Below the pieces are notes generated by a model. That model was not told the DNA's origin and searched no databases. It saw only the letters and a list, made by a program, of their open reading frames with translations. 64,000 nt of DNA from the NCBI GenBank assembly GCA_008933835.1, contig WBUG01000004.1:27005-91004 (forward strand), read 5' to 3'. Each line of letters opens with the position of its first letter. Position 1 is the first letter of the stretch. The DNA is from Bacteroidota bacterium. Its GTDB lineage: Bacteria; Bacteroidota; Ignavibacteria; UBA10030; UBA8401. Shown piece by piece: positions 44,280 to 64,000 of this stretch. Made by a program: the position numbers and the translations under genes.

Positions 44280-45158
44280 ATGGCCTCGGAACATGCACAT
44301 CTGGAGCAGGAGATACGCAAGCTCGCGTCGTTCGTCCCCATTTCGGCGACGGTCGCGAACATCATCCGTTATGAACTGAAGGGCGAAGCGGCCAACCGGC
44401 GTCTCCGCTCCCACATCGAAGCGGACAACGCCATCACCGTGATGGTGCTGCAGGCGGCGAACTCCTCCTTCTACGGGTTCCGCGGCCAGGTCGTCACGGT
44501 GGCCCACGCCGTGATGCTCATCGGGTTCGAAGAGATCAGCCGCATCGTACTGATGCACGAGCTCCGGCAGCGCATCATCGCGCTGAATCCGGCCCAGCAG
44601 GAATCCGTGAAGCGGCTCTGGATCCATAGCATCACCACCGCGACCCTCTCCCGCATCCTCTGCCGCGAACTCGGTCTGCACACCAGCGGCGAAGAGTTCA
44701 CCGGCGGACTCCTCCACGACCTTGGCAAGCTCTTCTTCATCCAGAACGTACCGGACCTCGCCGGCCGCATCGCGCAGCGCATCGCGGAAGGAACGGACGA
44801 CGTCGAAGCCGAACGCGAGATCGCCCGTTGGCCGCACACCGACATCGGCGCGCTGCTGGGACTGCAATGGGACCTTCCGCCGGTGCTCTGCGACGTGATG
44901 AAACTGCATCATCTTTCCGACCCTCTCGAGGAGGGACAGTCCATCGTCGCCGTCATCCGGCTGGCGGACCTGTTCTGCGAGAAGTGGGGATACGGCATCG
45001 GTGAAGGGAATGCGCCGGACCGCATCTCGGAAGACCCCTGCTGGGACCACCTGCGGCGGAGCGTCGCCGGATTGAACGGCCGTACGGCCGAAGAGATCGA
45101 AGGGGTCGTGAAGCCGGAATTCGACACCCATACGGAGTTCCGCGAACTCTTCCATTGA
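44280..45158 (+). CDS. Stand-alone HDOD-domain signalling protein
   Basis: HDOD hallmarks: ...VLQAANSSFYGF..., LLHDLGKL. Confidence 0.7.
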   Translation: MASEHAHLEQEIRKLASFVPISATVANIIRYELKGEAANRRLRSHIEADNAITVMVLQAANSSFYGFRGQVVTVAHAVMLIGFEEISRIVLMHELRQRIIALNPAQQESVKRLWIHSITTATLSRILCRELGLHTSGEEFTGGLLHDLGKLFFIQNVPDLAGRIAQRIAEGTDDVEAEREIARWPHTDIGALLGLQWDLPPVLCDVMKLHHLSDPLEEGQSIVAVIRLADLFCEKWGYGIGEGNAPDRISEDPCWDHLRRSVAGLNGRTAEEIEGVVKPEFDTHTEFRELFH

Positions 45159-45172
45159 CGGAGGCTACGGCC

Positions 45173-46042
45173 ATGCGCGACATCCGCAACGAGATCCAGA
45201 ACATCGGCGACGTCATCCCCATCCCCTCCATGGTGACGATGATCCTCACCCAGACGCTGACGGGAGAGACCGCGGGACGCAAGCTCATCGCCATCATCGA
45301 GTCCGACGCGTCGCTCACCGCCATGGTGCTCCGGGCCGCCAATTCCGCCTTCTACGGCATCCGCTCCGGCGTCTCCACCGTCTCGCACGCCGTGATGGTG
45401 CTCGGTCACCAGGAGATCAACCGGCTGGTCCTCACCTACGAACTGAAGCAGCGCATCCTCTCCCTCAACACCGAGCAGCGTGATTTCCTGAACCGTCTCT
45501 GGATCCACAGCGTGTCGGTCGCCACCGCCTCCCGCATCGTCGCCAAAGCGGCCGGTGTGCGGACCTCGGGCGAGGAGTTCACCGCCGGTCTTCTGCACGA
45601 TATGGGGAAGATCGTGCTCGTCCAGCATTTCCCCGACATGTTCGTCCGCGCCGCCGCCATGGGGACCGACCTCGGTCTTCCCGACGTGCAGGCGGAAGAA
45701 CAGGTCTTCGCCATATCGCATGACGAGGTCGGCGGCATGCTGGCCGAACAATGGAACCTCCCTGCCTCCATCGCCGATACGATGCGGTTCCACCACCGAT
45801 GCGGTTCCGCGACCGCCGACGTTCCGCTCACCTGCGTCGTCCGGCTTGCTGACCTCCTGGTCGAACGCTGGGGTATCGGCATCGACGAAGGGACCGCCGA
45901 CGGCGCCGTCACGGACAATGAGTGCTGGAAGATCCTGTCGGACCGTTTCCCCTCCATTGCGTCGGTCGACGTTCAGGAGTTCGAAGAGGGGGTCCGCATG
46001 GAATTCGAGAACAATCAGGCCTTCTCCGAACTCTTCACCTGA
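45173..46042 (+). CDS. Stand-alone HDOD-domain signalling protein (paralog)
   Basis: Same architecture (VLRAANSAFYGI, LLHDMGKI); GGAGG RBS before ATG 45173. Confidence 0.7.
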   Translation: MRDIRNEIQNIGDVIPIPSMVTMILTQTLTGETAGRKLIAIIESDASLTAMVLRAANSAFYGIRSGVSTVSHAVMVLGHQEINRLVLTYELKQRILSLNTEQRDFLNRLWIHSVSVATASRIVAKAAGVRTSGEEFTAGLLHDMGKIVLVQHFPDMFVRAAAMGTDLGLPDVQAEEQVFAISHDEVGGMLAEQWNLPASIADTMRFHHRCGSATADVPLTCVVRLADLLVERWGIGIDEGTADGAVTDNECWKILSDRFPSIASVDVQEFEEGVRMEFENNQAFSELFT

Positions 46043-49615: not shown

Positions 49616-52600
49616 ATGTTCTTCCGACGATCCGCCGAACGCCCCGACACCTTTTTCGTCTCCCGCGAGCTCTTCCTCGATGCCGCCCGGCTGTTCATCC
49701 GGCCCGCGGCCACCGTGGCGGACATCGGCTGCGGCATCCGTCCGCAGCGGTACATCGTTCCGCAGACGCATTACTGCGTCGACGCACACCGGCAGTACCT
49801 CGAACACTACCGGCAGCGGGGCGCCGGATTCGCCGGAACGGACTACGTCTTCATCAACGCCCTGTGGGGAGATGCCCTCAACGATCCTCGGCTGGCGGAC
49901 GTGGAGACCATCTTCGCCCTGGACGTGATCGAGCATATCGAGAAGGAGGAGGGGAAGCGGCTGCTGGAACGGACCGTCGCCGCGGCCAAGGAGCAGGTGG
50001 TCATCTTCACCCCGCTGGGCTTCGTGCCGCAGCACCATGAGGACGGGAAGGACGCCTGGGGTCTCGACGGCGGGAAATGGCAGGAACATCTCTCCGGCTG
50101 GCTGCCGGAGGAGTTTGCGGGGGACTGGACGTTCCTCGTCTGCGAGGATTTCCACACCCACGACAACATGCAGCACCGGCATGAGAAACCGGTCGGTGCC
50201 TTCTTCGCGTTCCTCAACAAGCGGGTACCTCCTCCGGCTCCTTCGCCGGACCTCTGTTTCCGGTTCACCGGTCTCGGCGATATCGCGGCCGATGCCGAAA
50301 CGCTCATCAGTCTGGCGAACCAGCGGAGCGGCGGCTGGGAAGCGGTCGTCAGCGACGGCGTTCCCGGAGACGAACTCCGCCATCTCGTCGAGGCGCTCTC
50401 CACCCGTTCATCCTCCTTCCAGCACCGGAACGACGGCCAGTACCGAACGACGGCCCCGACGGTCATCCGCCTGGCGGCGGGGGACCGTCTGTTGCCCGAC
50501 GCCGTCGACACCGTCCGCGCGTCGTTGACCGATACGGCCGGTGAATCGGTGGTGATCTTCACGGACCGCACGCCGGAACCGGGCGGTTCGCTGAAGCGCT
50601 CCGTCCAGCAGACCAGAACGGTTCCGGCGGGATTCGCCGCCCCGGCGATGATGTACGAAGACCTGACACGCCGCGGCTTCACGGCGATGCCGAGAAGCGT
50701 CGCCGAAAGGGTCGAATCGCGTCCTCTGCAGTTCCTGCAGACCGTCAAGGCCGAAGCCCTCTTCCGGGCGATGCCGGTACCGGCACGGATCGTGGAACAG
50801 GCGGTGCTGCAACCGGCCGCCATCGATGCAGATGCCGCCCGTTATGTTCGCATCATGGAATACACCTGGCTGCTGCACCGGTGGATGCGCAATGTGAGCT
50901 TCTCCGAAGCGTACCGCGCGGCGGATATCGATTCTCCTGACGGCAGTCAATCGTTCATTCAGTACTTCTTCGACGGTGCGACGGACGAAGGGAGTCCCGT
51001 CCACAACGCCCTCATCTGGGACGATTACATCGCCTGGCTGACCGCCGGTTTGGCGTCGCTCAACCGGGGGACCAAGAAGCGCATCCTGCAGCACGGCCGG
51101 AAGGTCTTCTCGTCCCTCCGGAACCTCCGTCCGATGTTCGAGCGGTATCATGCCTTCTTTTCGCGGCCGGACTTCGCCGTGCCGGCCGCGGCACGCGCCG
51201 TACCGGTCCCGGTTCCCGCCGACCGGAAGGAGGATGCAGAATACACCGCACTGCTCCACCGTCACATCGAACGGCGTCTCAAGGAGTCCGACCACGACGG
51301 GGCGCAGCTGGCGGTCGAGTTCCTCGTCCGTGCCACCGGAACGCTGGACAGCGCCGTGCTGAACCGTTTCGCAGAATCGGCGATGGTGAACGGCAACCTC
51401 CGCTCCCTGCGTGCGGTGGTCGAACGGCTCGGCGCCTTCGCGCAGCTGTCCGACGCCGGGAAGGCGGCGAGTCTGGCGGCCGGAGACGCTCCGCCGGAGT
51501 CGGGAATCGCGTCCATCGGTGATCCGGTCATCCGCGAGAACCTGCGGCGACATCTCGCCGGCGCCGCCATGCCGTTCGTGACCGACGACATCTCCGCCTG
51601 GACGTGCGATGCGGACGTGCATCGGAACGTGATGGTCCACTCGGTGAAGGCCTCCTGCCGGGAGTGCGGAACCCCGCTGCAGCGCACCGTCACGCTGCCC
51701 ATCGGCGGCGCACCCGGGAACGCCCCCGTGCTCTGCCACTCCTGCGCCGCGCCGTACACCCTTACGGACCGGCTCTTCCGGGAATGGGTCGAACGGCGGA
51801 ACGCCGCGCTGCCGGCCGCACCGCCGGTCCGCGCTTCGGGCCCCCGCGTGGCGCTGGTGATGCGCTATTCGAGCGTCATCAGCGGCGGCGTGAACATGAT
51901 CTTCCAGTACGCGGAATGGCTCCGCGAACTCGGCTGCACCGTCACCGTCCATTCCAACGAACCGAACTCGCCCCTCCGGAAGTTCACCGGCACCTTCAGC
52001 ATGGTGAAGAACGCCGGCGAGGTCCCCGCCGGGAAGTACGACGCCGTCTTCTGCATGTGCGCCGCGGACGTCCCGGTGATGCTGCAGAAGTATCCGAAGG
52101 AACGGGTCGCCCTCATCTGTCAGGGATACGAGGGGTATCACTACGGCCACACCTATGAGGAGCTCCGTGCGGACAAGTACATCTTCGACGAGATCCATGC
52201 ACTTCCGGCGGCGAAGTTCGCCGTCTCTCGCCATCTCACGCATCTCTTCGCGGAGAAGTTCGGCCAGCAGGCGTACTACATCCCCAACGGCACGGACCGG
52301 TCCGTGTTCCGTCCGGACCTGAGCATACGCCGAACGTCCCCTTCCGTACTGTTCGTCGGCAATCCGTACCAGCAGCTGAAGGGGGCCGATATGCTCCTTT
52401 CGGCCCTCTCATCGCTCCAGGCGAGCCGGTACGCGATGCCCGGCCTGACCCTCCATATCGCCATCGGAGGGGGGGCGGAGAAGATGGACCACCGCATCCA
52501 GACCGACCGGTTCGCGGTGCAGTACCATGTGGGGCTCGGCCGGAAGGAGATGGCCGCGCTGATGAACAGCGTCGACCTCGTCGTCAACACGTCGTGGTAC

Positions 52601-54502
52601 GAAGGATTCTCCCTGCCGATGCTCGAGGCGATGGCGTGCGGCACGCCGGTCATCACCACGCGCAACATGGGGGCGGAGAGCTTCTGCGAGCACGGGAAGA
52701 ACGCGTTCGTCGTTCCGTACGGCGACGTCTCCGGACTCGCCACCGCGATGCTCGCCGTGCTCAGCGGCGCTGAAGACCTCGCCCCGATGCTGCGCGAGGC
52801 GCAGAAGACCGCCGATGAGTATTCCACGGAGCGTTCGGTCCGCGCATTCGTGAACGAGACGGAACGGTTCCTCGGCGTCTCGTTCTCGCGGAGCCGGGTC
52901 GAACCGCTTGTCCGGCGTGCGGCGCATGCCGCTCCGTCGTCCGCGCGCGACCGCTCCGACCGTCCGAAGTTCACCGTGCTCGTGCCGACCTACAATCAGG
53001 CGGGGTACATCCCCGATACGCTCGACAGCCTGCGCCGTCAGACGGTGGAGGACTGGGAGGCGGTGGTGGTGAACGACGGCTCCACGGACAACACCCGCCG
53101 CGTCATCGAGCGGTACGCCCTGGCGGACGACCGCATCCGGACCTTCCATAAATCGAACGGCGGCGTCGCGTCCGCGCTCAACGAGGCGCTCCGTCAGGCA
53201 CGCGGCGAATGGATCCTCTGGCTCTCGTCCGACGACCTCTTTGAGGCGGACAAGCTGAAGGTCCACGAACGCCATTTCGCCGCCCACCCGGAGGCGCGAT
53301 TCTTCTACACCAACTACAGTCTGCTCTACCAGCAGACGCAGCAGAAGGTCCCCGGGTATCCCGGCATCGCCGCGGACGAGGACCGGGTGCTGAGCTTCTT
53401 CTACACCAACTACATCAACGGCATCAGCATCTGCATCCACCGCTCGGTCTTCTCGTCGGTCGGCTTCTTCAACGAGATCCTCCGCGATGGTCAGGACTAC
53501 GATATGTGGCTGCGCATCGCCCGTCAGTTTCCGTTGCAGTACATCGACGCCCGGACCTGCACGTACCGTGTCCACCCGGAGCAGGGCGCCAGCAAGTTCC
53601 CCGAGGCGGGCATCTACGATTCGGCGCTGTCGTGCGCGCAGTTCCTCAACACCCATCCGTACGCCGCCATCTTTCCGAAGCTCGATCCGGCGGACCCGGT
53701 CTCGGTGGACACGGCGGTGAAGAAGACCTTCTCCATCGTGATGGACCAGAACTCCTTCATCAACAAGCTCGGGTTCGGCCCGCTCCTCATCGACCGGCTG
53801 CACGAATGGGTCTCCGCCGGTTCGCCCCCCGGATACCGCACCGAACTGAACGCCAAGATCCGGCAGTACATCGTGGCCGTCCTGGGACAGGAACAGTCCG
53901 AGCCGGTGCGGGAGATGTTCGCGACGCTCTACAACGCCGGAACGGACGATTTCCGCTACCGTCCCCGCGACGTCTTCGCGCATGCGCACCGCTTCATCCT
54001 CGAACGGAAGCGGACCGTTGCGCCGGCCGAGGCGGAGAAGTACGACCGGTACATGAAACGGTTCGATGCCATCGTCGCGCTCCGGACCGAGGGACGGAAG
54101 CATGTGGCGCTGGCGGTACAGGCGATGGAGCGCCGGTCGTACGACGAAGCGCTCCGGCACATCGCCGCGGCGGAAGGGGCTGACCTGCACGACGTGCAGG
54201 AAGAACTGAGCGTGATGAAGGGGTGTGCACACCTCGGTCTGCAGGACCTCCCGAAGGCGCGGGAGGCGTTCGAAGAGACCCTTGCACGGAATCCCGAATC
54301 GTCCGAAGCGTGTGCCGGCCTCGGCGAGGTCTTCTTCCTGGCCGGCATGGACCGGGAGTCCAAGACGATGTTCGAATGGGCGGTCCGGTACGATGCGTCG
54401 AACCAGAGTGCGATGAACGGACTGTGCCGCGCCAATACGGAGCTCGGACTCCCCGAGGACGACAATGCTCTCCGGACGGTATCGGAGGAGGTGCCCGCAT
54501 GA
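49616..54502 (+). CDS. Giant fusion protein: class-I SAM methyltransferase + unknown ~500-aa region + GT4 + GT2 + C-terminal TPR
   Basis: MTase motif I VADIGCGIRPQ and post-motif II ALDVIEHIEKEEGKRLL; GT4 signature EGFSLPMLEAMACGTPVITT; GT2 signature FTVLVPTYNQAGYIPDTLDSLRRQT...NDGSTDNT...SSDD; TPR-like C-terminus. Confidence 0.7.
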   Translation: MFFRRSAERPDTFFVSRELFLDAARLFIRPAATVADIGCGIRPQRYIVPQTHYCVDAHRQYLEHYRQRGAGFAGTDYVFINALWGDALNDPRLADVETIFALDVIEHIEKEEGKRLLERTVAAAKEQVVIFTPLGFVPQHHEDGKDAWGLDGGKWQEHLSGWLPEEFAGDWTFLVCEDFHTHDNMQHRHEKPVGAFFAFLNKRVPPPAPSPDLCFRFTGLGDIAADAETLISLANQRSGGWEAVVSDGVPGDELRHLVEALSTRSSSFQHRNDGQYRTTAPTVIRLAAGDRLLPDAVDTVRASLTDTAGESVVIFTDRTPEPGGSLKRSVQQTRTVPAGFAAPAMMYEDLTRRGFTAMPRSVAERVESRPLQFLQTVKAEALFRAMPVPARIVEQAVLQPAAIDADAARYVRIMEYTWLLHRWMRNVSFSEAYRAADIDSPDGSQSFIQYFFDGATDEGSPVHNALIWDDYIAWLTAGLASLNRGTKKRILQHGRKVFSSLRNLRPMFERYHAFFSRPDFAVPAAARAVPVPVPADRKEDAEYTALLHRHIERRLKESDHDGAQLAVEFLVRATGTLDSAVLNRFAESAMVNGNLRSLRAVVERLGAFAQLSDAGKAASLAAGDAPPESGIASIGDPVIRENLRRHLAGAAMPFVTDDISAWTCDADVHRNVMVHSVKASCRECGTPLQRTVTLPIGGAPGNAPVLCHSCAAPYTLTDRLFREWVERRNAALPAAPPVRASGPRVALVMRYSSVISGGVNMIFQYAEWLRELGCTVTVHSNEPNSPLRKFTGTFSMVKNAGEVPAGKYDAVFCMCAADVPVMLQKYPKERVALICQGYEGYHYGHTYEELRADKYIFDEIHALPAAKFAVSRHLTHLFAEKFGQQAYYIPNGTDRSVFRPDLSIRRTSPSVLFVGNPYQQLKGADMLLSALSSLQASRYAMPGLTLHIAIGGGAEKMDHRIQTDRFAVQYHVGLGRKEMAALMNSVDLVVNTSWYEGFSLPMLEAMACGTPVITTRNMGAESFCEHGKNAFVVPYGDVSGLATAMLAVLSGAEDLAPMLREAQKTADEYSTERSVRAFVNETERFLGVSFSRSRVEPLVRRAAHAAPSSARDRSDRPKFTVLVPTYNQAGYIPDTLDSLRRQTVEDWEAVVVNDGSTDNTRRVIERYALADDRIRTFHKSNGGVASALNEALRQARGEWILWLSSDDLFEADKLKVHERHFAAHPEARFFYTNYSLLYQQTQQKVPGYPGIAADEDRVLSFFYTNYINGISICIHRSVFSSVGFFNEILRDGQDYDMWLRIARQFPLQYIDARTCTYRVHPEQGASKFPEAGIYDSALSCAQFLNTHPYAAIFPKLDPADPVSVDTAVKKTFSIVMDQNSFINKLGFGPLLIDRLHEWVSAGSPPGYRTELNAKIRQYIVAVLGQEQSEPVREMFATLYNAGTDDFRYRPRDVFAHAHRFILERKRTVAPAEAEKYDRYMKRFDAIVALRTEGRKHVALAVQAMERRSYDEALRHIAAAEGADLHDVQEELSVMKGCAHLGLQDLPKAREAFEETLARNPESSEACAGLGEVFFLAGMDRESKTMFEWAVRYDASNQSAMNGLCRANTELGLPEDDNALRTVSEEVPA

Positions 54503-55752
54503 ACCCGTCCGCCTCCCGCCGGCGCCCGACCATCGCGCTGTGCATGATCGTGAAGAACGAGGAGCGCTACCTCCGCGGCTGCCTCGAATCCGCCCGGCCG
54601 TATGTGGACGAGATCGTCGTCGTGGACACCGGTTCCACCGACGCGACCGTCTCCATCGCCGAAGAGTTCGGCGCCGTCGTCCGGCATTTCGCCTGGAACG
54701 GGAATTTTTCCGACGCCCGCAACGAATCGCTCCGCAGCGCCTCGTCCGACTGGGTGCTGTACCTGGACGCCGACGAACGCCTTCTCACCGGCGATGCGCT
54801 CCGCGCCATCGATCCGCCGAAGAACGCCGGCGCGTACAACGTCTCCATCCGGAGCCGGCACATCCTCCCGAGCGGCGTGGTGGACCAGGTGAACCAGTAC
54901 CAGCGTTTCTTCCGGCGTTCACCCTCCGTCCGGTTCGAAGGGATGGTGCACGAACAGGTGATGCCGTCGGTGCTCCGGAGCGGGAAGAATATCCTTCCCA
55001 GCGCCGTCGTCATCGAACATCTCGGGTACGGTGAGAGTCTCGAGAAGATCATGCAGAAGTGCGACCGCAATGCGGAGCTGCTCCGCCGCCAGCTGGCGGC
55101 CAATCCGGACGACCACTACGCACGGTATCAGCTCGGCAATACGCTCGGCGTGATGCAACGCTACGACGAAGCGGAGCCCCACCTGCTGGCGGCGGTGGAG
55201 AAGGACCGGAACGCGAGCATCCGGGCATCGGCATGCAACATCCTCGTCGAGGTGGCGATGCACCGTCAGGATCTGGCGGCCGCCGAATCGTGGTGCCGTC
55301 GTTCCATCACGCTCGTGCCGGACCAGGTGATGGCGTACTGGTTCCTCTCCGGCATCCTCGCGTTCCGACACCGTTACGCGGAAGGGATCGATCTCCTCTC
55401 GACGATCAGGAAACAGGCAGGGAAAGAGACCGGTCTGGCGCACGACATGGCGCTGTCCGAACCGGAGTTGCAGCAGCGCGCCGCCCTTTGCTTTGAGGGA
55501 CTGGCGAACGACGCGATGACCTCCAAGGATATGGCCGGCGTGCAGGCGGCGGTGGGGGCGGCGGAAGCGTACGGCGTCCGGACGGTGAAGCTACAGACCG
55601 CCGGAGCACAGTCGGCCATGGCGCTGAACGACCTCCGCGTGGCGGCGGGGCGCATCGACTATGTCATCCGCCACCTGCCGGAAGACGCTGTCGTTCAAAA
55701 GGAGCGGTTCCTCGCTGTGAAGAAACGTATCGAAGCGTTGGAGCCCGTGTAG
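54499..55752 (+). CDS. GT2 glycosyltransferase with C-terminal TPR repeats
   Basis: IALCMIVKNEERYL...VVDTGSTD...FAWNGNFSDARNE...YLDADE (GT2, SunS/flagellin-GT-like); TPR C-terminus; ATGA overlap with the upstream gene. Confidence 0.7.
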   Translation: MNPSASRRRPTIALCMIVKNEERYLRGCLESARPYVDEIVVVDTGSTDATVSIAEEFGAVVRHFAWNGNFSDARNESLRSASSDWVLYLDADERLLTGDALRAIDPPKNAGAYNVSIRSRHILPSGVVDQVNQYQRFFRRSPSVRFEGMVHEQVMPSVLRSGKNILPSAVVIEHLGYGESLEKIMQKCDRNAELLRRQLAANPDDHYARYQLGNTLGVMQRYDEAEPHLLAAVEKDRNASIRASACNILVEVAMHRQDLAAAESWCRRSITLVPDQVMAYWFLSGILAFRHRYAEGIDLLSTIRKQAGKETGLAHDMALSEPELQQRAALCFEGLANDAMTSKDMAGVQAAVGAAEAYGVRTVKLQTAGAQSAMALNDLRVAAGRIDYVIRHLPEDAVVQKERFLAVKKRIEALEPV

Positions 55753-55833
55753 CACAATATTGTGCAGGTGTCCGGCATTTCGCACTTCCGTCCGCCAACC
55801 CCCCTGTTCCGCGGGAAGTAGAGGGACATGATT

Positions 55834-55849
55834 TGGCACGGTAATTGTC
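55834..55849 (+). promoter_or_regulatory. Sigma-54-like -24/-12 element (TGGCACG-N4-TTGT) upstream of flagellin copy 1
   Basis: TTGGCACGgtaaTTGTC has the GG-N10-G(T) spacing of RpoN promoters with one mismatch in -12 GC; no sigma-28 motif in this leader. Confidence 0.3.
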
Positions 55850-55943
55850 GGATAAGGACCTATAGTCGATTCACACCGTTCAGGGAAGAACGGTCCGTTC
55901 GTTGCGGCATGGATGCCATCACCGATCATTCTGTGAGGTCTAT

Positions 55944-56765
55944 ATGGCATTCTCGACCGGCGGTCGCATCAACACCAACATCGGTGCGGACCAGGCCTAC
56001 GCCGCCCTGAACGATATCACGCGCGATCTCGGAGTCCATCAGCTCCGGCTCGCGACCGGCAAGCGCATCAATTCCGCCTCCGACGACGCTTCGGGCTACG
56101 TCATTTCGAAGAAGATGGAGGGGCGCATCCGCGCGATGACCGCGGCGCTGGACAACGTCGGCGACGCGCAGAGCGTGTACGGCGTGGCCGAAGGGGCGCT
56201 GCAGACCATCGCCGACATCCTGACGACGATCCAGGAGAAGCAGACCCGCGCCGCGAACGGCGCGATGGGGACCGAAGAGAAATCGGCCATCGTGTCCGAG
56301 ATCAACTCGCTCCTCTCCGAGATCGACGACATCACCGGTCAGACGAAGTTCAACGGCACGACGCTCCTCTCCGGCGGATACGCACAGGGGTTCCAGGTGG
56401 GAGAGAGCGCGTCGAGCATCCTCACCGTCTCCTTCAATTCGGTCGACACCGCGGCCCTGCTGGGCGTGGCGGCCGGCTCCGTCACCACCTCCAACATCGG
56501 TTCCCTCACCGTCGAACAGGCCCTCTCTTCGATCAACACCGAGATCGGCAAGATCGGGGCGTACGTCAACCGGCTGCAGACCAAGGAATCGAACATCACC
56601 ACCGCCATCACGAACACCGAGGCGGCGAAGAGCCGCATCATGGACGCGGATGTCGCCAAGGAACAGATCTTCGCATCGAAGCTGCAGATCCTGCAGCAGA
56701 CGGCCACGGCCCAGCTGGCCCAGGCCAATGCGTCGCCGCAATCATTCTTATCTCTCTTCAAGTGA
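55944..56765 (+). CDS. fliC: Flagellin (copy 1 of 5)
   Basis: Conserved flagellin N-terminus (RINTNIGA...LRLATGKRINSASDDASGY) and C-terminus (DADVAKEQ...ILQQT..AQLAQAN.SPQ..LSLF); 273 aa. Confidence 0.9.
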   Translation: MAFSTGGRINTNIGADQAYAALNDITRDLGVHQLRLATGKRINSASDDASGYVISKKMEGRIRAMTAALDNVGDAQSVYGVAEGALQTIADILTTIQEKQTRAANGAMGTEEKSAIVSEINSLLSEIDDITGQTKFNGTTLLSGGYAQGFQVGESASSILTVSFNSVDTAALLGVAAGSVTTSNIGSLTVEQALSSINTEIGKIGAYVNRLQTKESNITTAITNTEAAKSRIMDADVAKEQIFASKLQILQQTATAQLAQANASPQSFLSLFK

Positions 56766-56781
56766 CACATCCCCCATACGG

Positions 56782-56811
56782 CACCGGAACGGCCTGAACG
56801 GCGTTCCGGTG
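56782..56811. terminator. Perfect 10-bp-arm hairpin after flagellin 1
   Basis: CACCGGAACG-N10-CGTTCCGGTG. Confidence 0.5.
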
Positions 56812-56858
56812 CCTCCTTCCTTCCGCTCCGTGCGAGCGGTGTTCCGTCATTTTTCCCC

Positions 56859-56885
56859 TCAAGAACCGCCGTGAGGTGCCGATAA
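56859..56885 (+). promoter_or_regulatory. Sigma-28 (FliA) promoter for flagellin 2
   Basis: TCAAGAAC-N11-GCCGATAA; -10 matches the GCCGATAA consensus perfectly. Confidence 0.6.
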
Positions 56886-56969
56886 CCTTTATGGCAGGCC
56901 GAACGCAGGCCTGTCCCACACATCTCGGGCAAGGACGCCCGACCCACTTATAATTACACGGAGGTAATT

Positions 56970-57803
56970 ATGGCATTCTCAACAGGCGGCAGGATCAACA
57001 CCAACATCGGCGCGAACCAGGCGTACAGCGCGCTGAACACCATCAGCCGCGAGCTCGGCGTGCACCAGCTGCGTCTGGCCACCGGCAAGCGCATCAATTC
57101 CGCGGCGGACGACGCCTCCGGATACGTGATCTCCAAGAAGATGGAAGGACGCATGCGCTCGATGAGCGCCGCTCTGGACAACGTCGGCGACGCGCAGAGC
57201 GTGTACGGCGTGGCCGAAGGGGCGTATCAGACGGTCGCGGACATCCTGACCACCATCAAGGAGAAGCAGACCCGGGCGGCCAACGGCGCCATGGGAGGGG
57301 ACGAGAAGGACGCCATCGCGGCCGAGATCAACTCCCTCATGAACGAGATCACCGACATCGCCAACCAGACGAAGTTCAACGGCACCACGCTGCTCACCGG
57401 CGCCTCGAACTACTCCACCTCGTTCCAGGTCGGCGAAGCGTCGACGGACACGCTGACCGTGTCGTTCGCGAAGATCACCACCGCGTCCGGCGGACTGCTG
57501 TCGGTCGCCGCCGGTTCCGTGACCTCGGTGAACATCAGCGATCTGAGCGTCGATACGGCGTTGACCACCATCAACACCGAGATCGGGAAGATCGGTGCGC
57601 ACGTGAACCGGCTCCAGACCAAGGAGGCGAACATCACGACCGCCATCACCAACACCGAAGCCGCCAAGAGCCGCATCATGGACGCCGACGTCGCCAAGGA
57701 ACAGATCCTGGCGTCGAAGCTCTCCATCCTGCAGCAGACGTCCACGGCGCAGCTGGCCCAGGCCAACTCCTCGCCGCAGGCGTTCCTCTCGTTGTTTCGT
57801 TAA
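56970..57803 (+). CDS. fliC: Flagellin (copy 2 of 5)
   Basis: As copy 1; GGAGG RBS; 277 aa. Confidence 0.9.
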   Translation: MAFSTGGRINTNIGANQAYSALNTISRELGVHQLRLATGKRINSAADDASGYVISKKMEGRMRSMSAALDNVGDAQSVYGVAEGAYQTVADILTTIKEKQTRAANGAMGGDEKDAIAAEINSLMNEITDIANQTKFNGTTLLTGASNYSTSFQVGEASTDTLTVSFAKITTASGGLLSVAAGSVTSVNISDLSVDTALTTINTEIGKIGAHVNRLQTKEANITTAITNTEAAKSRIMDADVAKEQILASKLSILQQTSTAQLAQANSSPQAFLSLFR

Positions 57804-57825
57804 CGGAGTGATCGAGTGAGCGGAC

Positions 57826-57847
57826 GGGATGCCCGTACGGGCATCCC
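57826..57847. terminator. Perfect palindrome GGGATGCCCGTACGGGCATCCC after flagellin 2
   Basis: 9-bp arms with a GTAC loop followed by a C-run; terminator-like. Confidence 0.45.
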
Positions 57848-57963
57848 CCCGCCGCTGTGATCGCTCCCGGACCGGACGCGGGACCGCGGCATCATGACAC
57901 AGTTCTCATCCACACCAGGACGGGCAAGGACGCCCGTTCTCCCATCCACACAAGGAGGTAGTT

Positions 57964-58788
57964 ATGGCATTCTCAACAGGCGGTAGGATCAACACCAACA
58001 TCGGCGCGAACCAGGCGTACAGCGCGCTGAACACCATCAGCCGCGAGCTCGGCGTGCACCAGCTGCGTCTGGCCACCGGCAAACGCATCAATTCCGCGGC
58101 GGACGACGCCTCCGGATACGTGATCTCCAAGAAGATGGAAGGACGCATGCGCTCGATGAGCGCCGCTCTGGACAACGTCGGTGACGCGCAGAGCGTCTAC
58201 GGCGTGGCCGAAGGGGCGTATCAGACGGTCGCGGACATCCTGACCACCGTCAAGGAGAAGCAGACCCGGGCGGCCAACGGCGCCATGGGCAGCGAGGAGA
58301 AGGACGCCATCGCGGCCGAGATCAACTCGCTGATGAGCGAGATCGACGACATCTCCAACCAGACGAAGTTCAACGGCACGACGCTGCTCTCCGGCACGGC
58401 GTACTCGAAGAGCTTCCAGGTCGGTGAAGGCTCGTCCGACACGCTCACGGTGGCGTTCTCGCTCGTCAGCGCCGGCGGACTGCTCGGCGTGGCGGCCGGT
58501 TCGGTCACCTCGGCCAACATCGCCAGCCTCACCGTCGATGCGGGTCTCACCACGGTGAACACCGAGATCGGAAAGATCGGTGCGCACGTGAACCGGCTCC
58601 AGACCAAGGAGTCGAACATCACGACGGCCATCACCAACACCGAGGCCGCGAAGAGCCGCATCATGGACGCCGACGTCGCCAAGGAACAGATCATGGCATC
58701 GAAGCTCTCCATCCTGCAGCAGACGTCCACGGCGCAGCTGGCCCAGGCCAACTCCTCGCCGCAGGCGTTCCTGTCGCTCTTCCGCTGA
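57964..58788 (+). CDS. fliC: Flagellin (copy 3 of 5)
   Basis: As above; 274 aa; no obvious sigma-28 motif upstream. Confidence 0.9.
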   Translation: MAFSTGGRINTNIGANQAYSALNTISRELGVHQLRLATGKRINSAADDASGYVISKKMEGRMRSMSAALDNVGDAQSVYGVAEGAYQTVADILTTVKEKQTRAANGAMGSEEKDAIAAEINSLMSEIDDISNQTKFNGTTLLSGTAYSKSFQVGEGSSDTLTVAFSLVSAGGLLGVAAGSVTSANIASLTVDAGLTTVNTEIGKIGAHVNRLQTKESNITTAITNTEAAKSRIMDADVAKEQIMASKLSILQQTSTAQLAQANSSPQAFLSLFR

Positions 58789-58892
58789 TAACAGCATGAC
58801 GCCCGGGCGGCGGTCCTGACCGGACCCCGCCCGGCGGATTCTGAACCCCGCCCCGAGGGCCGACCCCCGAGGGGAGGGGTGTTTTTTGTCCT

Positions 58893-58918
58893 CAAGATTC
58901 CTCCGGAAATGCCGATAC
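58893..58918 (+). promoter_or_regulatory. Sigma-28 (FliA) promoter for flagellin 4
   Basis: TCAAGATT-N11-GCCGATAC. Confidence 0.6.
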
Positions 58919-58982
58919 ATAATATGTAAAACTCACGGGCACGGATGCCCAGAGCATTCACATATCATACACGGAGGTAGTT

Positions 58983-59807
58983 ATGGCTTTCTCAACAGGC
59001 GGTAGGATCAACACGAACATTGGCGCCAACCAGGCGTACAGTGCTCTCAACTCGGTCAGTCGCGAACTCGGAGTGTACCAGCTCCGGCTGGCGACCGGCA
59101 AGCGCATCAACCAGGCGTCGGATGATGCGTCCGGGTACGTGATCTCCAAGAAGATGGAAGGGCGCATCCGCTCCATGTCGGCGGCCCTGGACAACGTCGG
59201 CGACGCGCAGAGCGTCTACGGCGTGGCCGAAGGGGCCTATCAGACGGTCGCGGACATCCTGACCACCATCAAGGAGAAACAGACCCGGGCGGCGAACGGC
59301 GCCATGGGAAGCGAGGAGAAGGACGCCATCGCGGCGGAGATCAACTCGCTGATGGGCGAGATCGGGGACATCGCCAACCAGACGAAGTTCAACGGTACGA
59401 CGCTGCTGTCGGGCACGGCGTACTCGCAGACCTTCCAGGTCGGCGAAGGAACGACCGACACCCTCACGGTGGCATTCTCGCTGGTCAGCGCCGGCGGACT
59501 GCTCGGCGTGGCGGCCGGTTCGGTCACCTCGGCCAACATCGCCAGTCTCACCGTCGATGCGGGTCTGACCACGATCAATACCGAGATCGGGAAGATCGGT
59601 GCGCACGTGAACCGGCTCCAGACCAAGGAGGCGAACATCACGACCGCCATCACCAACACCGAAGCGGCCAAAAGCCGGATCCTGGATGCGGATGTCGCCA
59701 AGGAGCAGATCCAAACGTCCAAGCTGTCCATCCTGCAGCAGACGTCGACCGCTCAATTGGCACAGGCCAACTCGTCACCCCAATCGTTCTTGTCGCTGTT
59801 CCGGTAA
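58983..59807 (+). CDS. fliC: Flagellin (copy 4 of 5)
   Basis: As above; 274 aa; nearly identical to copy 3. Confidence 0.9.
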   Translation: MAFSTGGRINTNIGANQAYSALNSVSRELGVYQLRLATGKRINQASDDASGYVISKKMEGRIRSMSAALDNVGDAQSVYGVAEGAYQTVADILTTIKEKQTRAANGAMGSEEKDAIAAEINSLMGEIGDIANQTKFNGTTLLSGTAYSQTFQVGEGTTDTLTVAFSLVSAGGLLGVAAGSVTSANIASLTVDAGLTTINTEIGKIGAHVNRLQTKEANITTAITNTEAAKSRILDADVAKEQIQTSKLSILQQTSTAQLAQANSSPQSFLSLFR

Positions 59808-59925
59808 GAACGGGAGAGACCATCGAAGCGGGGGGTTCCTGACCGGAGCCCGCCGCTTTTTTTATTCCGTCCCCTTTTTTCGTCCGTTTTCGGCACCTCG
59901 GCCAGACGGATGTCCCCCGTCCATC

Positions 59926-59952
59926 CTCAAGATTACCGGTACCGTGCCGATA
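59926..59952 (+). promoter_or_regulatory. Sigma-28 (FliA) promoter for flagellin 5
   Basis: TCAAGATT-N11-GCCGATAT. Confidence 0.6.
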
Positions 59953-60029
59953 TATAGGTAGGAGGATTCCCGCACATCCTCCCGGAACGGATTCCAAGAC
60001 TCATCGTTGTTCACTACAAGGAGGTAACC

Positions 60030-60851
60030 ATGGCATTCTCAACAGGCGGCAGGATCAACACCAACATCGGCGCCAACCAGGCGTACGGTGCACTGAACAC
60101 CATCAGCCGCGAGCTCGGCGTGCACCAGCTGCGGCTGGCCACCGGCAAACGCATCAATTCCGCAGCGGATGACGCTTCGGGATACGTGATCTCCAAGAAG
60201 ATGGAAGGCCGCATTCGGTCCATGAGCGCAGCTCTGGACAACGTCGGCGACGCGCAGAGCGTCTACGGCGTGGCCGAAGGGGCGTATCAGACCATCGCGG
60301 ACATCCTCACCACCATCAAGGAGAAACAGACCCGGGCGGCCAACGGCGCCATGGGAGGGGACGAGAAGGACGCCATCGCGGCGGAGATCAACTCGCTGAT
60401 GAGCGAGATCAACGACATCTCCAACCAGACGAAGTTCAACGGAACGGCACTGCTCTCAGCGAGCTTCTCCACGTCGTTCCAGGTCGGCGACGGCACCTCG
60501 GACACGCTCTCCGTCTCGTTTGCGTCGGTCGGCGCCACCGGACTTCTCGGCGTGGCGGCCGGTTCGGTCACCTCGGCGAACATCTCGAGCCTGACGGTCG
60601 ACACCGGACTCACCACGGTGAACACCGAGATCGGGAAGATCGGCGCCAACGTCAACCGCCTCCAGACCAAGGAAGCGAACCTGACGACCGCCATCACCAA
60701 CACCGAAGCGGCGAAGAGCCGCATCATGGACGCCGACGTCGCGAAGGAACAGATCATGACGTCCAAGCTCTCCATCCTGCAGCAGACGTCGACGGCGCAG
60801 CTGGCCCAGGCCAACTCCTCGCCGCAGGCGTTCCTGTCGCTCTTCCGGTGA
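60030..60851 (+). CDS. fliC: Flagellin (copy 5 of 5)
   Basis: As above; 273 aa. Confidence 0.9.
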   Translation: MAFSTGGRINTNIGANQAYGALNTISRELGVHQLRLATGKRINSAADDASGYVISKKMEGRIRSMSAALDNVGDAQSVYGVAEGAYQTIADILTTIKEKQTRAANGAMGGDEKDAIAAEINSLMSEINDISNQTKFNGTALLSASFSTSFQVGDGTSDTLSVSFASVGATGLLGVAAGSVTSANISSLTVDTGLTTVNTEIGKIGANVNRLQTKEANLTTAITNTEAAKSRIMDADVAKEQIMTSKLSILQQTSTAQLAQANSSPQAFLSLFR

Positions 60852-60924
60852 TCCACAGTTCCATCGGAGGGGGGGCCGTTACCGGGTCCTCCTCCGCTAC
60901 ACAGGGCATGAACAACGATAGCGT

Positions 60925-61296
60925 ATGGGAGCGGATATGTTCGCGTACAAACAGCAGTCAGCCGAGACCGAAACGGGCGTGATGACCGGACCGGCGCCGT
61001 CGCTGGCCACCACGAGGTACCGGCGGGAAGACTCGATGAACCTCACTCCGGTGCAGGTCATCCAGCGGCTCTATGACGTCGCCATCATGGCCATCCGGAA
61101 GGACGACCGGGACCTGGCGCGCCGGGCCATCAACGAGCTCATCTCGGCGCTGAACTTCGAGCACCGCGAGGTCGCGCTCGGCCTCTTCAAGCTGTACGAT
61201 TACTCCAAGACGATGCTGCGCCAGGGGAAGAACGACGAAGCGCTCACCGTGCTCCTCGAACTCCGTTCCGCCTGGGTCGAAGCGTTCAAGCTCTGA
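60925..61296 (+). CDS. fliS: Flagellar export chaperone FliS (probable true start at ATG 60937)
   Basis: FliS-like core (LYDVAIMAIRKDDRDLARRAINELISALN...LFKLYDYSKTML...LLELRSAWVEA). Confidence 0.7.
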   Translation: MGADMFAYKQQSAETETGVMTGPAPSLATTRYRREDSMNLTPVQVIQRLYDVAIMAIRKDDRDLARRAINELISALNFEHREVALGLFKLYDYSKTMLRQGKNDEALTVLLELRSAWVEAFKL

Positions 61297-61317
61297 ACCA
61301 TCACAAGGACCGGCACC

Positions 61318-62748
61318 ATGTCATCGGTATCCGACATCTCCACCATCGATCAGCTCGTCGCGCAGTACCGGCTGAGCAAGCGCAAGCCCGCGCAGACGCT
61401 GGAGACCAAGCGGTCCGCCCTCAACATCCGGCTCGCCGTGCTGTCGGACCTCAAGACGAAACTGAAGACGCTGAAGACCACCGCCGAGGGGCTCGCCAAG
61501 ACCGGCACCCTCTCCGCGTTCAATACGTTCACCGTGTCGTCCACGAACTCCTCCATCGTCGCCGGCACCGCCTCCACCACGGCCGACATCGGCACCCACT
61601 CCGTCCGCGTGTCGCGCCTCGCGAAGAACGATACGCTGCTGTCGGACCGGCTCACCGCCGCCGCGACCGGCGTCGCGGACGCCGAAGGAGCCGGCACGAA
61701 GACCTTCCGCATCACCATCAACGGCGAAACGACCGACGTTTCCGTCGACGTGACGGCGGGGGAGACGAACAAGGACCTCCTCTCCAGGATCGCGACGGCC
61801 ATCAACGATTCCGACGCCGGGGTGACCGCCTCGTCGGTGGGGGACACCTCCTCCACGAACCGTCTGGTGCTCATCTCCAAGACCACCGGCGCCTCCCAGG
61901 CGGTCTCCGTGACGGACGTCAGCGGAACCCTGATGGAAAAGCTCGGGTATACGTCGTCCGTCATCTCCGGACGCACCGCCTCCGGCACCGCAACGGCCGG
62001 GTACGCGCAGAGCTCCCTGTCGGACCTGAACGCCGCCATGACCATCGACGGCATCGATGTGGAGAAGGAAAGCAACACCGTCACCGACGTGCTGAAAGGG
62101 GTCACGCTCGAACTGAAGGGACTGCAGACGGCCGCGGACGCGCCGGTCACCGTGTCGGTGGGGGTGAACAAGGACGCCGTCAAGGAGAAGGTGCAGAAGT
62201 TCCTCAACGACTACAACGCCGCGCTGAGCTACCTCACCGCCAAGACGGCCTACGATCCGGTGACGAAGACGCGGGAGGCGCTCTCCGGGGACACGGTCTT
62301 CACCACGCTCCGCTACAACCTCCGGATGACCGTCGCCGCGAAGGTCGAGACGGTGAACGCGGGCTTTCCGTCGCTCCTCTCCGACATCGGCATCACTGCC
62401 GGACGCGACGGTTCGCTCTCCATCACCGACACGGACGCGTTCACCGACGCGCTCGACGGCGGCGTCGCGAAGGTGGAGCAGCTCTTCAACACCTCCGGCG
62501 GCATCGCGAACACGCTCGTCTCGCTCATCGACGGGATGACGAACTCGGCCACCGGCAAGATCGGTGCGGCGAAGGACGCGCTGGACTCCCAGGTGCTGGG
62601 ACTGACCAACCGCATCACCCGGTTCGATGAGACATTGAACCGACACGTGGAGAAGTACCGGAACGATTTCCTGAGGCTCCAGGCGACGTACAATCAGATC
62701 CTGGCGCAGCAACAGACCATCTCGACCATCACGTCGTACTACTATTGA
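61318..62748 (+). CDS. fliD: Flagellar filament cap protein FliD
   Basis: FliD N-terminal (IDQLVAQYRLSKRKP...LNIRLAVLSDLKTKL) and C-terminal coiled-coil regions; 476 aa. Confidence 0.8.
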   Translation: MSSVSDISTIDQLVAQYRLSKRKPAQTLETKRSALNIRLAVLSDLKTKLKTLKTTAEGLAKTGTLSAFNTFTVSSTNSSIVAGTASTTADIGTHSVRVSRLAKNDTLLSDRLTAAATGVADAEGAGTKTFRITINGETTDVSVDVTAGETNKDLLSRIATAINDSDAGVTASSVGDTSSTNRLVLISKTTGASQAVSVTDVSGTLMEKLGYTSSVISGRTASGTATAGYAQSSLSDLNAAMTIDGIDVEKESNTVTDVLKGVTLELKGLQTAADAPVTVSVGVNKDAVKEKVQKFLNDYNAALSYLTAKTAYDPVTKTREALSGDTVFTTLRYNLRMTVAAKVETVNAGFPSLLSDIGITAGRDGSLSITDTDAFTDALDGGVAKVEQLFNTSGGIANTLVSLIDGMTNSATGKIGAAKDALDSQVLGLTNRITRFDETLNRHVEKYRNDFLRLQATYNQILAQQQTISTITSYYY

Positions 62749-62777
62749 ACGGACGGACGGCGGCGGGATATCGCATC

Positions 62778-63110
62778 ATGACGACGAAGATCGAACATAT
62801 CGACACAGCGGTCCAGGCGGTACCCTTCATCCAGGAGCCGGCGCAGGATCAGGAGCGCTCCGCCGCGCTGAAACGTCAGCGCGAGGAGAACCGGAAGCTC
62901 CGCGATGCGGCATCGGAGCTCAACAAGAAGATGGCGGAGGCGCATACGAAGCTGACGTTCGTGGTGGACGAGGAATCGAACAAGGCGATCGTGAAGGTGG
63001 TGGACGCCGAGACCAACAAGGTCATCCGGCAGATCCCTTCCGAGGATTCGGTGCGCGTCGCGAAGAACATCTCACGGATGATGGGGATCCTCTATGACGA
63101 ATCGGTGTGA
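62778..63110 (+). CDS. flaG: FlaG-family flagellar protein
   Basis: FlaG signature LTFVVDEESNKAIVKVVDAETNKVIRQIPSE. Confidence 0.65.
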   Translation: MTTKIEHIDTAVQAVPFIQEPAQDQERSAALKRQREENRKLRDAASELNKKMAEAHTKLTFVVDEESNKAIVKVVDAETNKVIRQIPSEDSVRVAKNISRMMGILYDESV

Positions 63111-63444
63111 AGCGAGGCCGGACGACGCGGTCGTGCCGGCGTTGAACGACCTCATCGGCTCCACGGAGTCGATGATCGCGGCGCTCGACCGTGGGGACTA
63201 TGACGAGCTGACCATGCTCGCCGGGGTCCGGCAGGGACAGGTGGAAGGGCTCGAGCGTCGCCGAACGGCTCCCGGGGGGAGCGCCCGCGGCGGTCCGGAC
63301 GTGCAGGCGGCGGTCGTACGTCTGCAGGAACGCACGGAGGAACTGAAAGACCGGATGCGGGAACGGAGCGCGTCGATCATGTCGGCCATCCAGGCGCTGC
63401 AGAAGCGGCGGTTCTACGATGCCGGCACACAACGAAGGGAGTGA
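63094..63444 (+). CDS. Small hypothetical protein in the flagellar locus (possibly FliT-like)
   Basis: ORF only, in operon context between flaG and flgM; no recognisable motif. Confidence 0.3.
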   Translation: MTNRCEARPDDAVVPALNDLIGSTESMIAALDRGDYDELTMLAGVRQGQVEGLERRRTAPGGSARGGPDVQAAVVRLQERTEELKDRMRERSASIMSAIQALQKRRFYDAGTQRRE

Positions 63445-63448
63445 CACC

Positions 63449-63709
63449 ATGGATGTCCGAAAGATTTCACAGCCGCAGAACGCGTATGATACGGTACGGG
63501 TCCGGAAGGAAAAGGCCGTCGAGGAGAAGCAACGGCGGCGCACCGACGATACGGCGGAACTCTCGCCCGAAGCGGTGAAACTGTTCCAGGCCGAGGAGAA
63601 CCGGAAGATCGACATGGTCACCGAACGGATCCAGACGGGATACTATTTCCGTCAGGAAGTGGTCGAGAAGGTGGCCGACGAACTTCTCCAGCAATTCACC
63701 CATCCGTAA
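63449..63709 (+). CDS. flgM: Anti-sigma-28 factor FlgM
   Basis: About 87 aa; FlgM-like C-terminus RIQTGYYFRQEVVEKVADELL; GGGAG RBS. Confidence 0.6.
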   Translation: MDVRKISQPQNAYDTVRVRKEKAVEEKQRRRTDDTAELSPEAVKLFQAEENRKIDMVTERIQTGYYFRQEVVEKVADELLQQFTHP

Positions 63710-63729
63710 ACTCGAACAGCGGGACCATC

Positions 63730-64000
63730 ATGCTGCACGATCAAGAGGCGCTGGTCCGCGGCGTCCAGATCCATCGTCGCATCAACGACCTGAGCAAGCT
63801 CTGGGCGGACCGGAACATGCCCCAGCAGACCGTCGTTCTCTCGCAGGAGCTTTATTTCGCCCTGCTGGAGTACACGGTGCTGATGAACGAAAGCGCCGTC
63901 AACCGCGACCTGCTGCTGTGGGAACTGTTCCACCGCGACGAACTCTTCTTTGATACCGGCGAACTTCAGCTCCGCGTCCGGGTCGATTTCTTCCTTCCGC
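63730..64000 (+). CDS. 3'-truncated ORF downstream of flgM, possibly an FlgN-like chaperone
   Basis: Open frame from ATG 63730 to the window end; the flgM-flgN gene order is common; weak sequence support. Confidence 0.25.
   Translation, partial: MLHDQEALVRGVQIHRRINDLSKLWADRNMPQQTVVLSQELYFALLEYTVLMNESAVNRDLLLWELFHRDELFFDTGELQLRVRVDFFLP

Follow-up and report, generated by a model that had tools for sequence, protein, structure and literature searches.

Predicted sigma-54 and sigma-28 promoters divide five tandem flagellin genes into two classes in an uncultured Ignavibacteria-like Bacteroidota

To our knowledge, nearly all work on flagellin genes divided between sigma-54 and sigma-28 concerns Proteobacteria and Campylobacterota. 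In Campylobacter jejuni and Helicobacter pylori there is a flagellin pair in which flaB is controlled by sigma-54 and FlgSR and flaA by sigma-28, and in Vibrio, Helicobacter and Campylobacter the flagellin under sigma-54 control can make up a section of the filament in its own right, hook-proximal or acting as a scaffold. Here we describe five tandem flagellin genes, termed fla1–fla5, within a 64-kb stretch of DNA (contig WBUG01000004.1, positions 27,005–91,004; hereafter the window, from the first letter of which coordinates are counted unless a contig is named). The host is an uncultured Ignavibacteria/Kapabacteria-like member of the Bacteroidota with a GC content of 64 %, and the closest relatives of its FliD are found in metagenome-assembled genomes (MAGs) of Bacteroidota and Ignavibacteriae. 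The regulatory design of the array, as read from its promoters, is the one known from Vibrio and Campylobacter, here in a new phylum. We consider fairly probable a two-class transcription model in which fla1 (class A) would depend on sigma-54 and fla2–fla5 (class B) on sigma-28. An earlier interpretation made from the letters alone (the sequence-only reading) had held that mixed sigma-factor control would be new for this lineage, and our literature search indeed turned up nothing published on how flagellin promoters are controlled in Ignavibacteria or Kapabacteria-like Bacteroidota.

In Vibrio cholerae, flaA belongs to class III, under FlrC and sigma-54, and flaBCDE to class IV, under sigma-28 (PMC6504787). 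The locus described here resembles that system in having five paralogues, one of them distinct and placed behind a sigma-54-type promoter with the rest assigned to sigma-28, as well as a two-component kinase with an NtrC-type activator, and fliS, fliD and flaG nearby. It differs in that all five genes form a single tandem array, the flagellins are short (273–277 aa), one class-B gene (fla3) lacks a promoter of its own, and the -12 element reads TTGA or TTGT rather than TTGC. [quoted passage not shown] With Campylobacter and Helicobacter the locus shares tandem or paired flagellins divided between sigma-54 and sigma-28, a cytoplasmic kinase with a sigma-54 activator, and glycosyltransferase genes beside the flagellins. 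It has, however, four class-B copies rather than one, and its activator binds DNA through a predicted HTH_8 domain and has a candidate site upstream of the promoter, whereas in Campylobacter and Helicobacter FlgR works independently of an enhancer.

There are parallels at the level of translation too. By attaching to two stem-loops with GGA, CsrA keeps ribosomes off the Bacillus hag leader (PMC13443453), and the GGA-containing leader of C. jejuni flaA mRNA has been described as a target of CsrA/FliW control (PMC4894983). The leaders described here contain GGA as well, and those of class B, like that of B. subtilis hag, pair a GGA in a hairpin loop with a second in the Shine–Dalgarno sequence, the promoter type being sigma-28 (SigD-type). 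In contrast with hag, which is subject to a Hag-FliW-CsrA partner switch, no csrA match was obtained in the loci examined here; the flagellin genes are several and every one is preceded by a leader; and fla1-class leaders carry GGA in two hairpins and, in four of five cases, not at the Shine–Dalgarno sequence.

Two predicted promoter types in a tandem flagellin array

The five open reading frames (ORFs) lie head-to-tail on the + strand from 55944 to 60851 and specify proteins of 273–277 aa, separated by spacers of 204, 160, 194 and 222 nt, which bears out the tandem arrangement with spacers of ∼200 bp first noted. They correspond to fla1 (55944–56765, 273 aa), fla2 (56970–57803, 277 aa), fla3 (57964–58788, 274 aa), fla4 (58983–59807, 274 aa) and fla5 (60030–60851, 273 aa); the start of fla1 is the ATG of MAFSTGG, not the TTG upstream at 55902. 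A Pfam scan covering fla1 and fla2 identified the helical domains that define flagellins, Flagellin_N (E = 8e-32 and 5e-32, respectively) and Flagellin_C (E = 3e-18 and 1e-17), and fla3, fla4 and fla5 were typed via their 79–93 % identity to these two genes.

Searching the window for TCAAGA-N13-GCCGATA returned exactly three matches, all of them perfect and all located before class-B genes, namely fla2, fla4 and fla5 (at 56859, 58892 and 59927), with no additional sites in the 64 kb when up to two mismatches were allowed. These are the genes to which the sequence-only reading had assigned the motif. The predicted promoters read TCAAGAAC-N11-GCCGATAA for fla2 (56859–56885), TCAAGATT-N11-GCCGATAC for fla4 (58892–58918) and TCAAGATT-N11-GCCGATAT for fla5 (59927–59953), all on the + strand. 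Their geometry, TCAA-N15-GCCGATA(A/C/T), is that of sigma-28 promoters, which have a TAAA-like -35 element, 15-nt spacing and the -10 sequence GCCGATAA. Furthermore, TAAAG or TCAAG followed by GCCGATAA was found upstream of flagellins in ∼25 related loci (flagellin identity 45–94 %; loci are referred to by L-numbers), where the -10 end lies mostly 62–87 nt ahead of the ATG. The motif also occurs in relatives that have no more than two flagellin genes (L004, L005, L006, L009, L015–L020, L024, L026, L028 and L030), and slight variants are present in L017, L022, L025, L031–33 and L042. This distribution, including as it does the one- or two-flagellin loci, suggests that sigma-28 control is ancestral for the flagellins of the lineage.

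The element preceding fla1 is of another type. Here, TGGCACGGTAATTGT (TGGCAC-N5-TTGT) is located at 55834–55848 on the + strand, where a sigma-54-like motif had been proposed; viewed as a sigma-54-type promoter it occupies 55834–55849 (TGGCACGGTAATTGTC), with the -24 GG at 55835–55836 and a -12 dinucleotide of GT, not GC, and from this position a transcription start near 55860 is predicted. Five independent fla1 orthologues (window, L003, L057, L058 and L060), obtained through a protein search and contig look-ups, all carry TGGCAC-N5-TTG 95–150 nt before the ATG, the block reading TGGCACGGTAATTGTC in the window, TGGCACACATCTTGAA in L003, TGGCACATCACTTGAA in L057, TGGCACAACTATTGAA in L058 and TGGCACAGATATTGAC in L060. 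The -24 GG and its exact spacing to the -12 element are thus held in the same register in the window and the four orthologues, and no second TGGCAC-N5-TTG occurs elsewhere in these close-clade loci. When the five spacers were aligned, mean column identity was 54 %, and the block was among the few conserved islands.

In these otherwise divergent spacers, all five orthologues also contain a GTnCAATAT element 62–79 nt upstream of TGGCAC. In the window this element is the 14-bp palindrome GCACAATATTGTGC (55752–55765), situated 80 nt upstream of the -24 element, and its core ACAATATTGT is unique within the 64 kb; we regard it as a candidate enhancer (upstream activating sequence). A match to ACAATATTGT in L020 falls within the coding sequence of the kinase and was put down to chance.

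The orthologues are recognizable by descent and context as well. Together with the first array genes of L003, L057, L058 and L060/L061, fla1 forms a monophyletic clade recovered in 100/100 bootstraps, and class A is separate from class B throughout the tree; judged from this phylogeny, fla1 is an old, distinct and separately evolving paralogue. The orthologous loci span 50–64 % GC, and in each the orthologue follows a GT2-TPR gene. A metagenome scan with fla1 found 48 loci, among which there was no additional fla1 orthologue.

A potential activator is encoded close by. Contig L008, which is 100 % identical to the window at 60806–64000, extends the locus downstream and brings the host sequence analysed to ∼70 kb in all. 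Approximately 3 kb past the array it encodes a LuxR-type response regulator, a REC-PAS-HisKA-HATPase kinase and a regulator with REC, Sigma54_activat and HTH_8 domains. The last of these (L008 5699–7123) has GAFTGA at residue 220, as would be expected of a cognate AAA+ enhancer-binding protein, and the kinase/activator synteny is also found in L003 and L020.

Taking these findings together, we propose that fla1 would be transcribed by sigma-54 from TGGCAC-N5-TTGT at 55834, with the NtrC-family regulator encoded ∼3 kb downstream as its likely activator, probably binding the conserved palindrome ∼80 nt upstream of the promoter, and that fla1 would be expressed together with the sigma-54 middle genes. 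Class B would be transcribed by sigma-28 from three promoters, serving fla2–fla3, fla4, and fla5 with possible read-through into fliS–fliD; such control would imply late expression, after hook completion. The sigma factor and activator placed at each promoter are those that its motif suggests, and by analogy with the precedents fla1 may supply a hook-proximal or scaffold part of the filament. The mixed assignment of the sequence-only reading has thereby gained phylogenetic footprinting in five fla1 orthologues, lineage-wide sigma-28 motifs and an adjacent sigma-54-dependent activator.

A GGA-hairpin leader on the flagellin mRNAs

A new feature to emerge from this analysis is the GGA-hairpin leader. 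Every flagellin leader contains a short hairpin with the loop ANGGAN, 23–37 nt ahead of the Shine–Dalgarno sequence, and all of these hairpins lie downstream of the predicted transcription starts. In class B the Shine–Dalgarno sequence is ACAnGGAGGTA, which supplies a second GGA. The hairpins, all on the + strand, are CGGGC-AAGGAC-GCCCG in both the fla2 leader (56926–56964; hairpin 56926–56941) and the fla3 leader (57921–57958; hairpin 57921–57936), GGGC-ACGGAT-GCCC in the fla4 leader (58937–58977; hairpin 58937–58950) and GGAA-CGGA-TTCC in the fla5 leader (59984–60024; hairpin 59984–59995), with Shine–Dalgarno GGAGG at 56960–56964, 57954–57958, 58973–58977 and 60020–60024, respectively.

The fla1 leader is built differently. 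It has two hairpins with GGA in the loop, CCGTTC-AGGGAA-GAACGG at 55876–55893, which is kept with stem changes in L003, L058 and L060, and GGCA-TGGA-TGCC at 55906–55917 (both + strand), and its Shine–Dalgarno GAGG (55935–55938) is preceded by TGT and overlaps no GGA. Two GGA hairpins were found in four of the five fla1-class leaders. The Shine–Dalgarno sequences of this class are weaker than those of class B (55930–55946 compared with 56955–56972, 57950–57966, 58968–58985 and 60015–60032), and those of four of the five orthologues lack GGA (TGAGGTC, ATGAGGTT, ACGAGGTT), the exception being L057 with AGAGGA. The two flagellin classes are thus probably set apart by their translational control and not by promoter type alone.

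In order to assess the hairpin across relatives, we aligned 33 leaders. The 5-bp stem was paired in 91 % of cells and showed compensatory changes at four of its five pairs; among 500 shuffles none equalled the pairing or the covariation score that was observed, and at most 43 % of cells were paired in slid controls. The loop held GGA in 31 of the 33 leaders and GGU in the other two. The two-GGA layout (loop plus Shine–Dalgarno overlap) was found in fla2–fla5 and in 29 related leaders. Scanning 55500–64000 against Rfam (E ≤ 1) returned no known RNA family.

By comparison with the precedents above, this leader has the architecture of a CsrA-type site, and whether it is read as one is an evenly balanced question in our estimation. 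Were it so, flagellin translation would be repressed by CsrA, antagonized by FliW, through the loop GGA and the Shine–Dalgarno GGA, and it is this layout that suggests CsrA as a candidate binding protein. Two observations weigh against it: tblastn with B. subtilis and E. coli CsrA queries found no csrA match in the window and 55 loci (∼450 kb of flagellar loci), and CsrA is reported to be scarce in Bacteroidota (PMC13443453). Both favour the alternative that the GGA-loop hairpin is instead a 5′ stabilizer, a translation element or the target of another, possibly lineage-specific, RNA-binding protein, as does the replacement of GGA by GGU in two leaders. We rate this as a serious possibility, if somewhat short of an even one. 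Against it, an invariant loop on covarying stems suggests sequence-specific recognition of the loop, the spacing of loop GGA and Shine–Dalgarno GGA by 23–37 nt is the layout of Bacillus hag (PMC13443453), and flagellated Bacteroidota could be the few members of the phylum that have CsrA.

Transcription units and competing readings

Stable GC-rich hairpins of -23 to -30 kcal/mol follow each of the five fla genes, as had been noticed from the sequence. A hairpin with a U-tract, the hallmark of Rho-independent termination, was found after fla3 and fla4 only. Behind fla3, a hairpin at 58800–58836 is followed by an intrinsic terminator (stem 58863–58880, T6 at 58882–58887), and behind fla4 there is a canonical intrinsic terminator with a GC-rich stem and T7 (59825–59863). 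No T-run accompanies the hairpins after fla1 (56781–56812, -23 kcal/mol), fla2 and fla5 (60865–60896, -25 kcal/mol), all five structures being on the + strand. A similar T-less hairpin stands behind the last flagellin of L003, and that of fla5 is probably a partial stop ahead of fliS.

The structure between fla2 and fla3 is a perfect 22-bp palindrome, GGGATGCCCGTACGGGCATCCC (57826–57847; 9-bp stem, 4-nt loop), with a stability of -26 kcal/mol, and the 160-nt spacer ahead of fla3 contains neither a sigma-28 nor a sigma-54 motif; on both points the earlier description of this copy holds. Lacking a T-run, the palindrome is probably a stabilizing, processing or weak pause element and not a full terminator. 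Since canonical terminators are present only after fla3 and fla4, we infer that fla3 is probably co-transcribed with fla2. The most economical reading is thus one of four units: fla1 (sigma-54), and fla2–fla3, fla4, and fla5 with partial fliS–fliD read-through (sigma-28). This departs from the original proposal that each copy is an independent unit, because fla3 is promoter-less and the hairpin ahead of it has no U-tract, and both states are kept in L057, where the orthologous spacer is also promoter-less and has an equivalent GGATGC..GCATCC hairpin. L003 and L057 have two promoter-less internal flagellin copies each (copies 3 and 4).

Rather unlikely, although with some substance, is the alternative that fla3 has its own promoter of an unrecognizable type, such as a lineage-specific housekeeping one, so that the array would comprise five separate units. 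In its favour, a hairpin of -26 kcal/mol does separate fla2 from fla3. Nevertheless, that hairpin is missing a U-tract, no sigma-70-like site is present, and a search for a promoter shared by the five promoter-less spacers (W3; copies 3 and 4 of L003; copies 3 and 4 of L057) found only the leader hairpin and the Shine–Dalgarno sequence to be conserved. As an observation on such spacers, two internal ones are unusually long, L003 5059–5479 (421 nt) and L057 3506–3997 (492 nt), and neither has a recognizable promoter. That of L057 contains an additional GGA-loop hairpin (CACGGGCAGGGAGGCCCG) far upstream of the true leader, possibly the remnant of a deleted flagellin copy.

Several points weigh against sigma-54 control of fla1 by the linked activator. 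In the window alone the sigma-54-like match is at chance level, with ∼3 expected per 64 kb at up to one mismatch. The -12 GC dinucleotide is missing from all five orthologues, being GT in the window and GA in L003, L057, L058 and L060, and this -12 C is kept in more than 90 % of known sigma-54 promoters. The activator matches only generic AtoC/NtrC/FlbD/FlgR-like NCBIfam models, all below their cut-offs, and we therefore rejected any finer naming of it. Finally, L020 has the same kinase/activator pair though both its flagellins have sigma-28 promoters, so that the linkage is not specific to fla1. The linked regulator is a candidate activator of fla1 in particular, and the kinase/activator pair probably controls a broader flagellar regulon that came to include fla1.

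The first two of these points allow for a reading in which TGGCAC-N5-TTGT is not a sigma-54 promoter but the site of another regulator, and fla1 would depend on a housekeeping or unrecognized sigma factor, or on transcription running on from the glycosyltransferase genes. Nor was rpoN seen in the ∼70 kb of genome sequence analysed. We consider this reading quite improbable. The weight of the match comes from its position and its conservation among orthologues: the exact TGGCAC-N5-TTG register is maintained in five divergent spacers and found nowhere else in those loci. Moreover, a GAFTGA-bearing regulator is linked to the locus, and no sigma-70-like or sigma-28-like promoter is detectable before fla1, the scan of 55000–64000 for sigma-70-type promoters having returned no sites.

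Least credible, and in our view highly improbable, is that the whole array forms one or two polycistronic transcripts with hairpins as processing or stability elements and GCCGATA boxes as relics, for although U-tracts are missing after fla1, fla2 and fla5, and fla3 and copies 3 and 4 of L003 and L057 are promoter-less, the sigma-28 boxes are perfect, lineage-wide and mostly 62–87 nt from the ATG, and hairpin-plus-T-run terminators lie directly ahead of the fla4 and fla5 promoters.

Paralogue evolution and genomic surroundings

Pairwise comparison of the array genes showed that fla1 is the outlier, with 78–80 % nucleotide identity to the other four copies. The sequence-only reading had described copies 3 and 4 as near-identical; at 88.1 % nucleotide and 92.7 % protein identity they are not, and the highest nucleotide identity among the five is that of fla2 and fla3, at 90.4 %. 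In sliding windows, fla2 and fla3 are 97–99 % identical across nt 1–300, and fla3 and fla4 are 89–97 % identical at nt ∼350–650 and only 78–86 % at the 5′ end, so that fla3 is fla2-like in its 5′ third and fla4-like in its centre. The class-B genes thus appear from their sequences to be mosaics, for which recombination or gene conversion among class-B copies is a plausible origin. Of the recent duplication or conversion originally envisaged, then, conversion stands as plausible and the alignment does reveal mosaic tracts, but these are other than those proposed for copies 3 and 4, which are not the closest pair. In the class-B tree there is partial grouping by genome (copies 2–4 of L057; copies 2 and 6 of L003; W3 with W4). 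Such by-genome clusters, together with the mosaic structure, suggest that duplication and conversion are still continuing.

The origin of the fla1 promoter can be approached from L009, a locus with a sigma-28 promoter and a single flagellin on an 8.7-kb contig, whose gene branches outside class A and class B. From this placement, the sigma-54 promoter was most likely gained by one copy after duplication. A stronger version, in which a duplicated flagellin was independently recruited to sigma-54 via a lineage-specific -12 TTGA/TTGT and the new enhancer GCACAATATTGTGC, with the GGA hairpin read by a CsrA-like or non-CsrA protein, we hold to be unlikely; if true, it would mean convergent evolution of the Vibrio/Campylobacter two-class filament programme and an undescribed post-transcriptional regulator. 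The design has been footprinted in five genomes of an uncultured Bacteroidota clade, with single-flagellin relatives being sigma-28 only, and this combination would suggest that a programme of 'early scaffold flagellin plus late bulk flagellins' has evolved repeatedly. The array further provides a comparative system in which a stable class A can be set against a class B that is duplicating and converting. It offers testable elements in a lineage without genetics, namely a sigma-54 promoter with a non-canonical -12, a candidate enhancer and a covarying GGA-hairpin leader. For annotation purposes, the promoter and leader motifs can predict flagellin regulons in MAGs.

Two glycosyltransferase genes on the + strand lie directly upstream of the flagellins, as they also do in L058, L060 and L020. 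By Pfam, they encode a multidomain protein of 1628 aa (GT4 + GT2 + TPR; 49616–54502), the L058 orthologue of which has additional methyltransferase domains, and a GT2 + TPR protein (54496–55752). This pair (49616–55752) is probably a module for the glycosylation of flagellin. Identified by Pfam downstream of the array, again on the + strand, are fliS (60925/60937–61296), fliD (61318–62748), flaG (62745–63110) and a fliT-like gene (63094–63444). They are followed by a 96-aa ORF (63419–63709, +) that resembles FlgM by position and C-terminal pattern only. Pfam, NCBIfam and the PDB yielded nothing for it, BLASTP showed no similarity to a Salmonella/E. coli-type FlgM query, and its designation as FlgM was rejected. 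A 97-aa ORF (63730–64000) without a significant Pfam match is cut by the window end and continues in L008 (2925–3218). Both small ORFs, placed between the fliT-like and response-regulator genes, recur in L003 and L020.

Two tandem HDOD-domain proteins, possibly connected with motility signalling, are encoded at 44280–46042, a few kb ahead of the glycosylation and flagellin genes. The remainder of the window encodes glycoside hydrolases, several of which bear T9SS C-terminal sorting domains. They form part of a polysaccharide-utilization-type cluster (33–44238) with GH3, GH5, GH16, GH94, GH2, GH43 and glucoamylase-like enzymes, a TonB-dependent receptor, a LacI regulator and an ABC sugar transporter. 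Por_Secre_tail (T9SS) sorting domains were found on five scanned proteins of this cluster, including a CotH-kinase-like protein (6753–8411).

Finally, some of the related loci merit mention in their own right. L001 and L060 (GCA_943364975.1; CALRIY020000068.1 and CALRIY020000023.1) carry flagellin, FliD and glycosyltransferase loci 71–86 % identical to the window and are labelled 'Synechococcus sp. UW140'; this bin is probably contaminated or mislabelled. In the distant loci L045, L047, L050 and L053, TGGCAC-N5-TTG occurs upstream of flagellins on the same strand. Eight tandem flagellins, ∼30 % identical to those of the window, are found in L056 (5816–14133) on a 386-kb contig of a distant organism.

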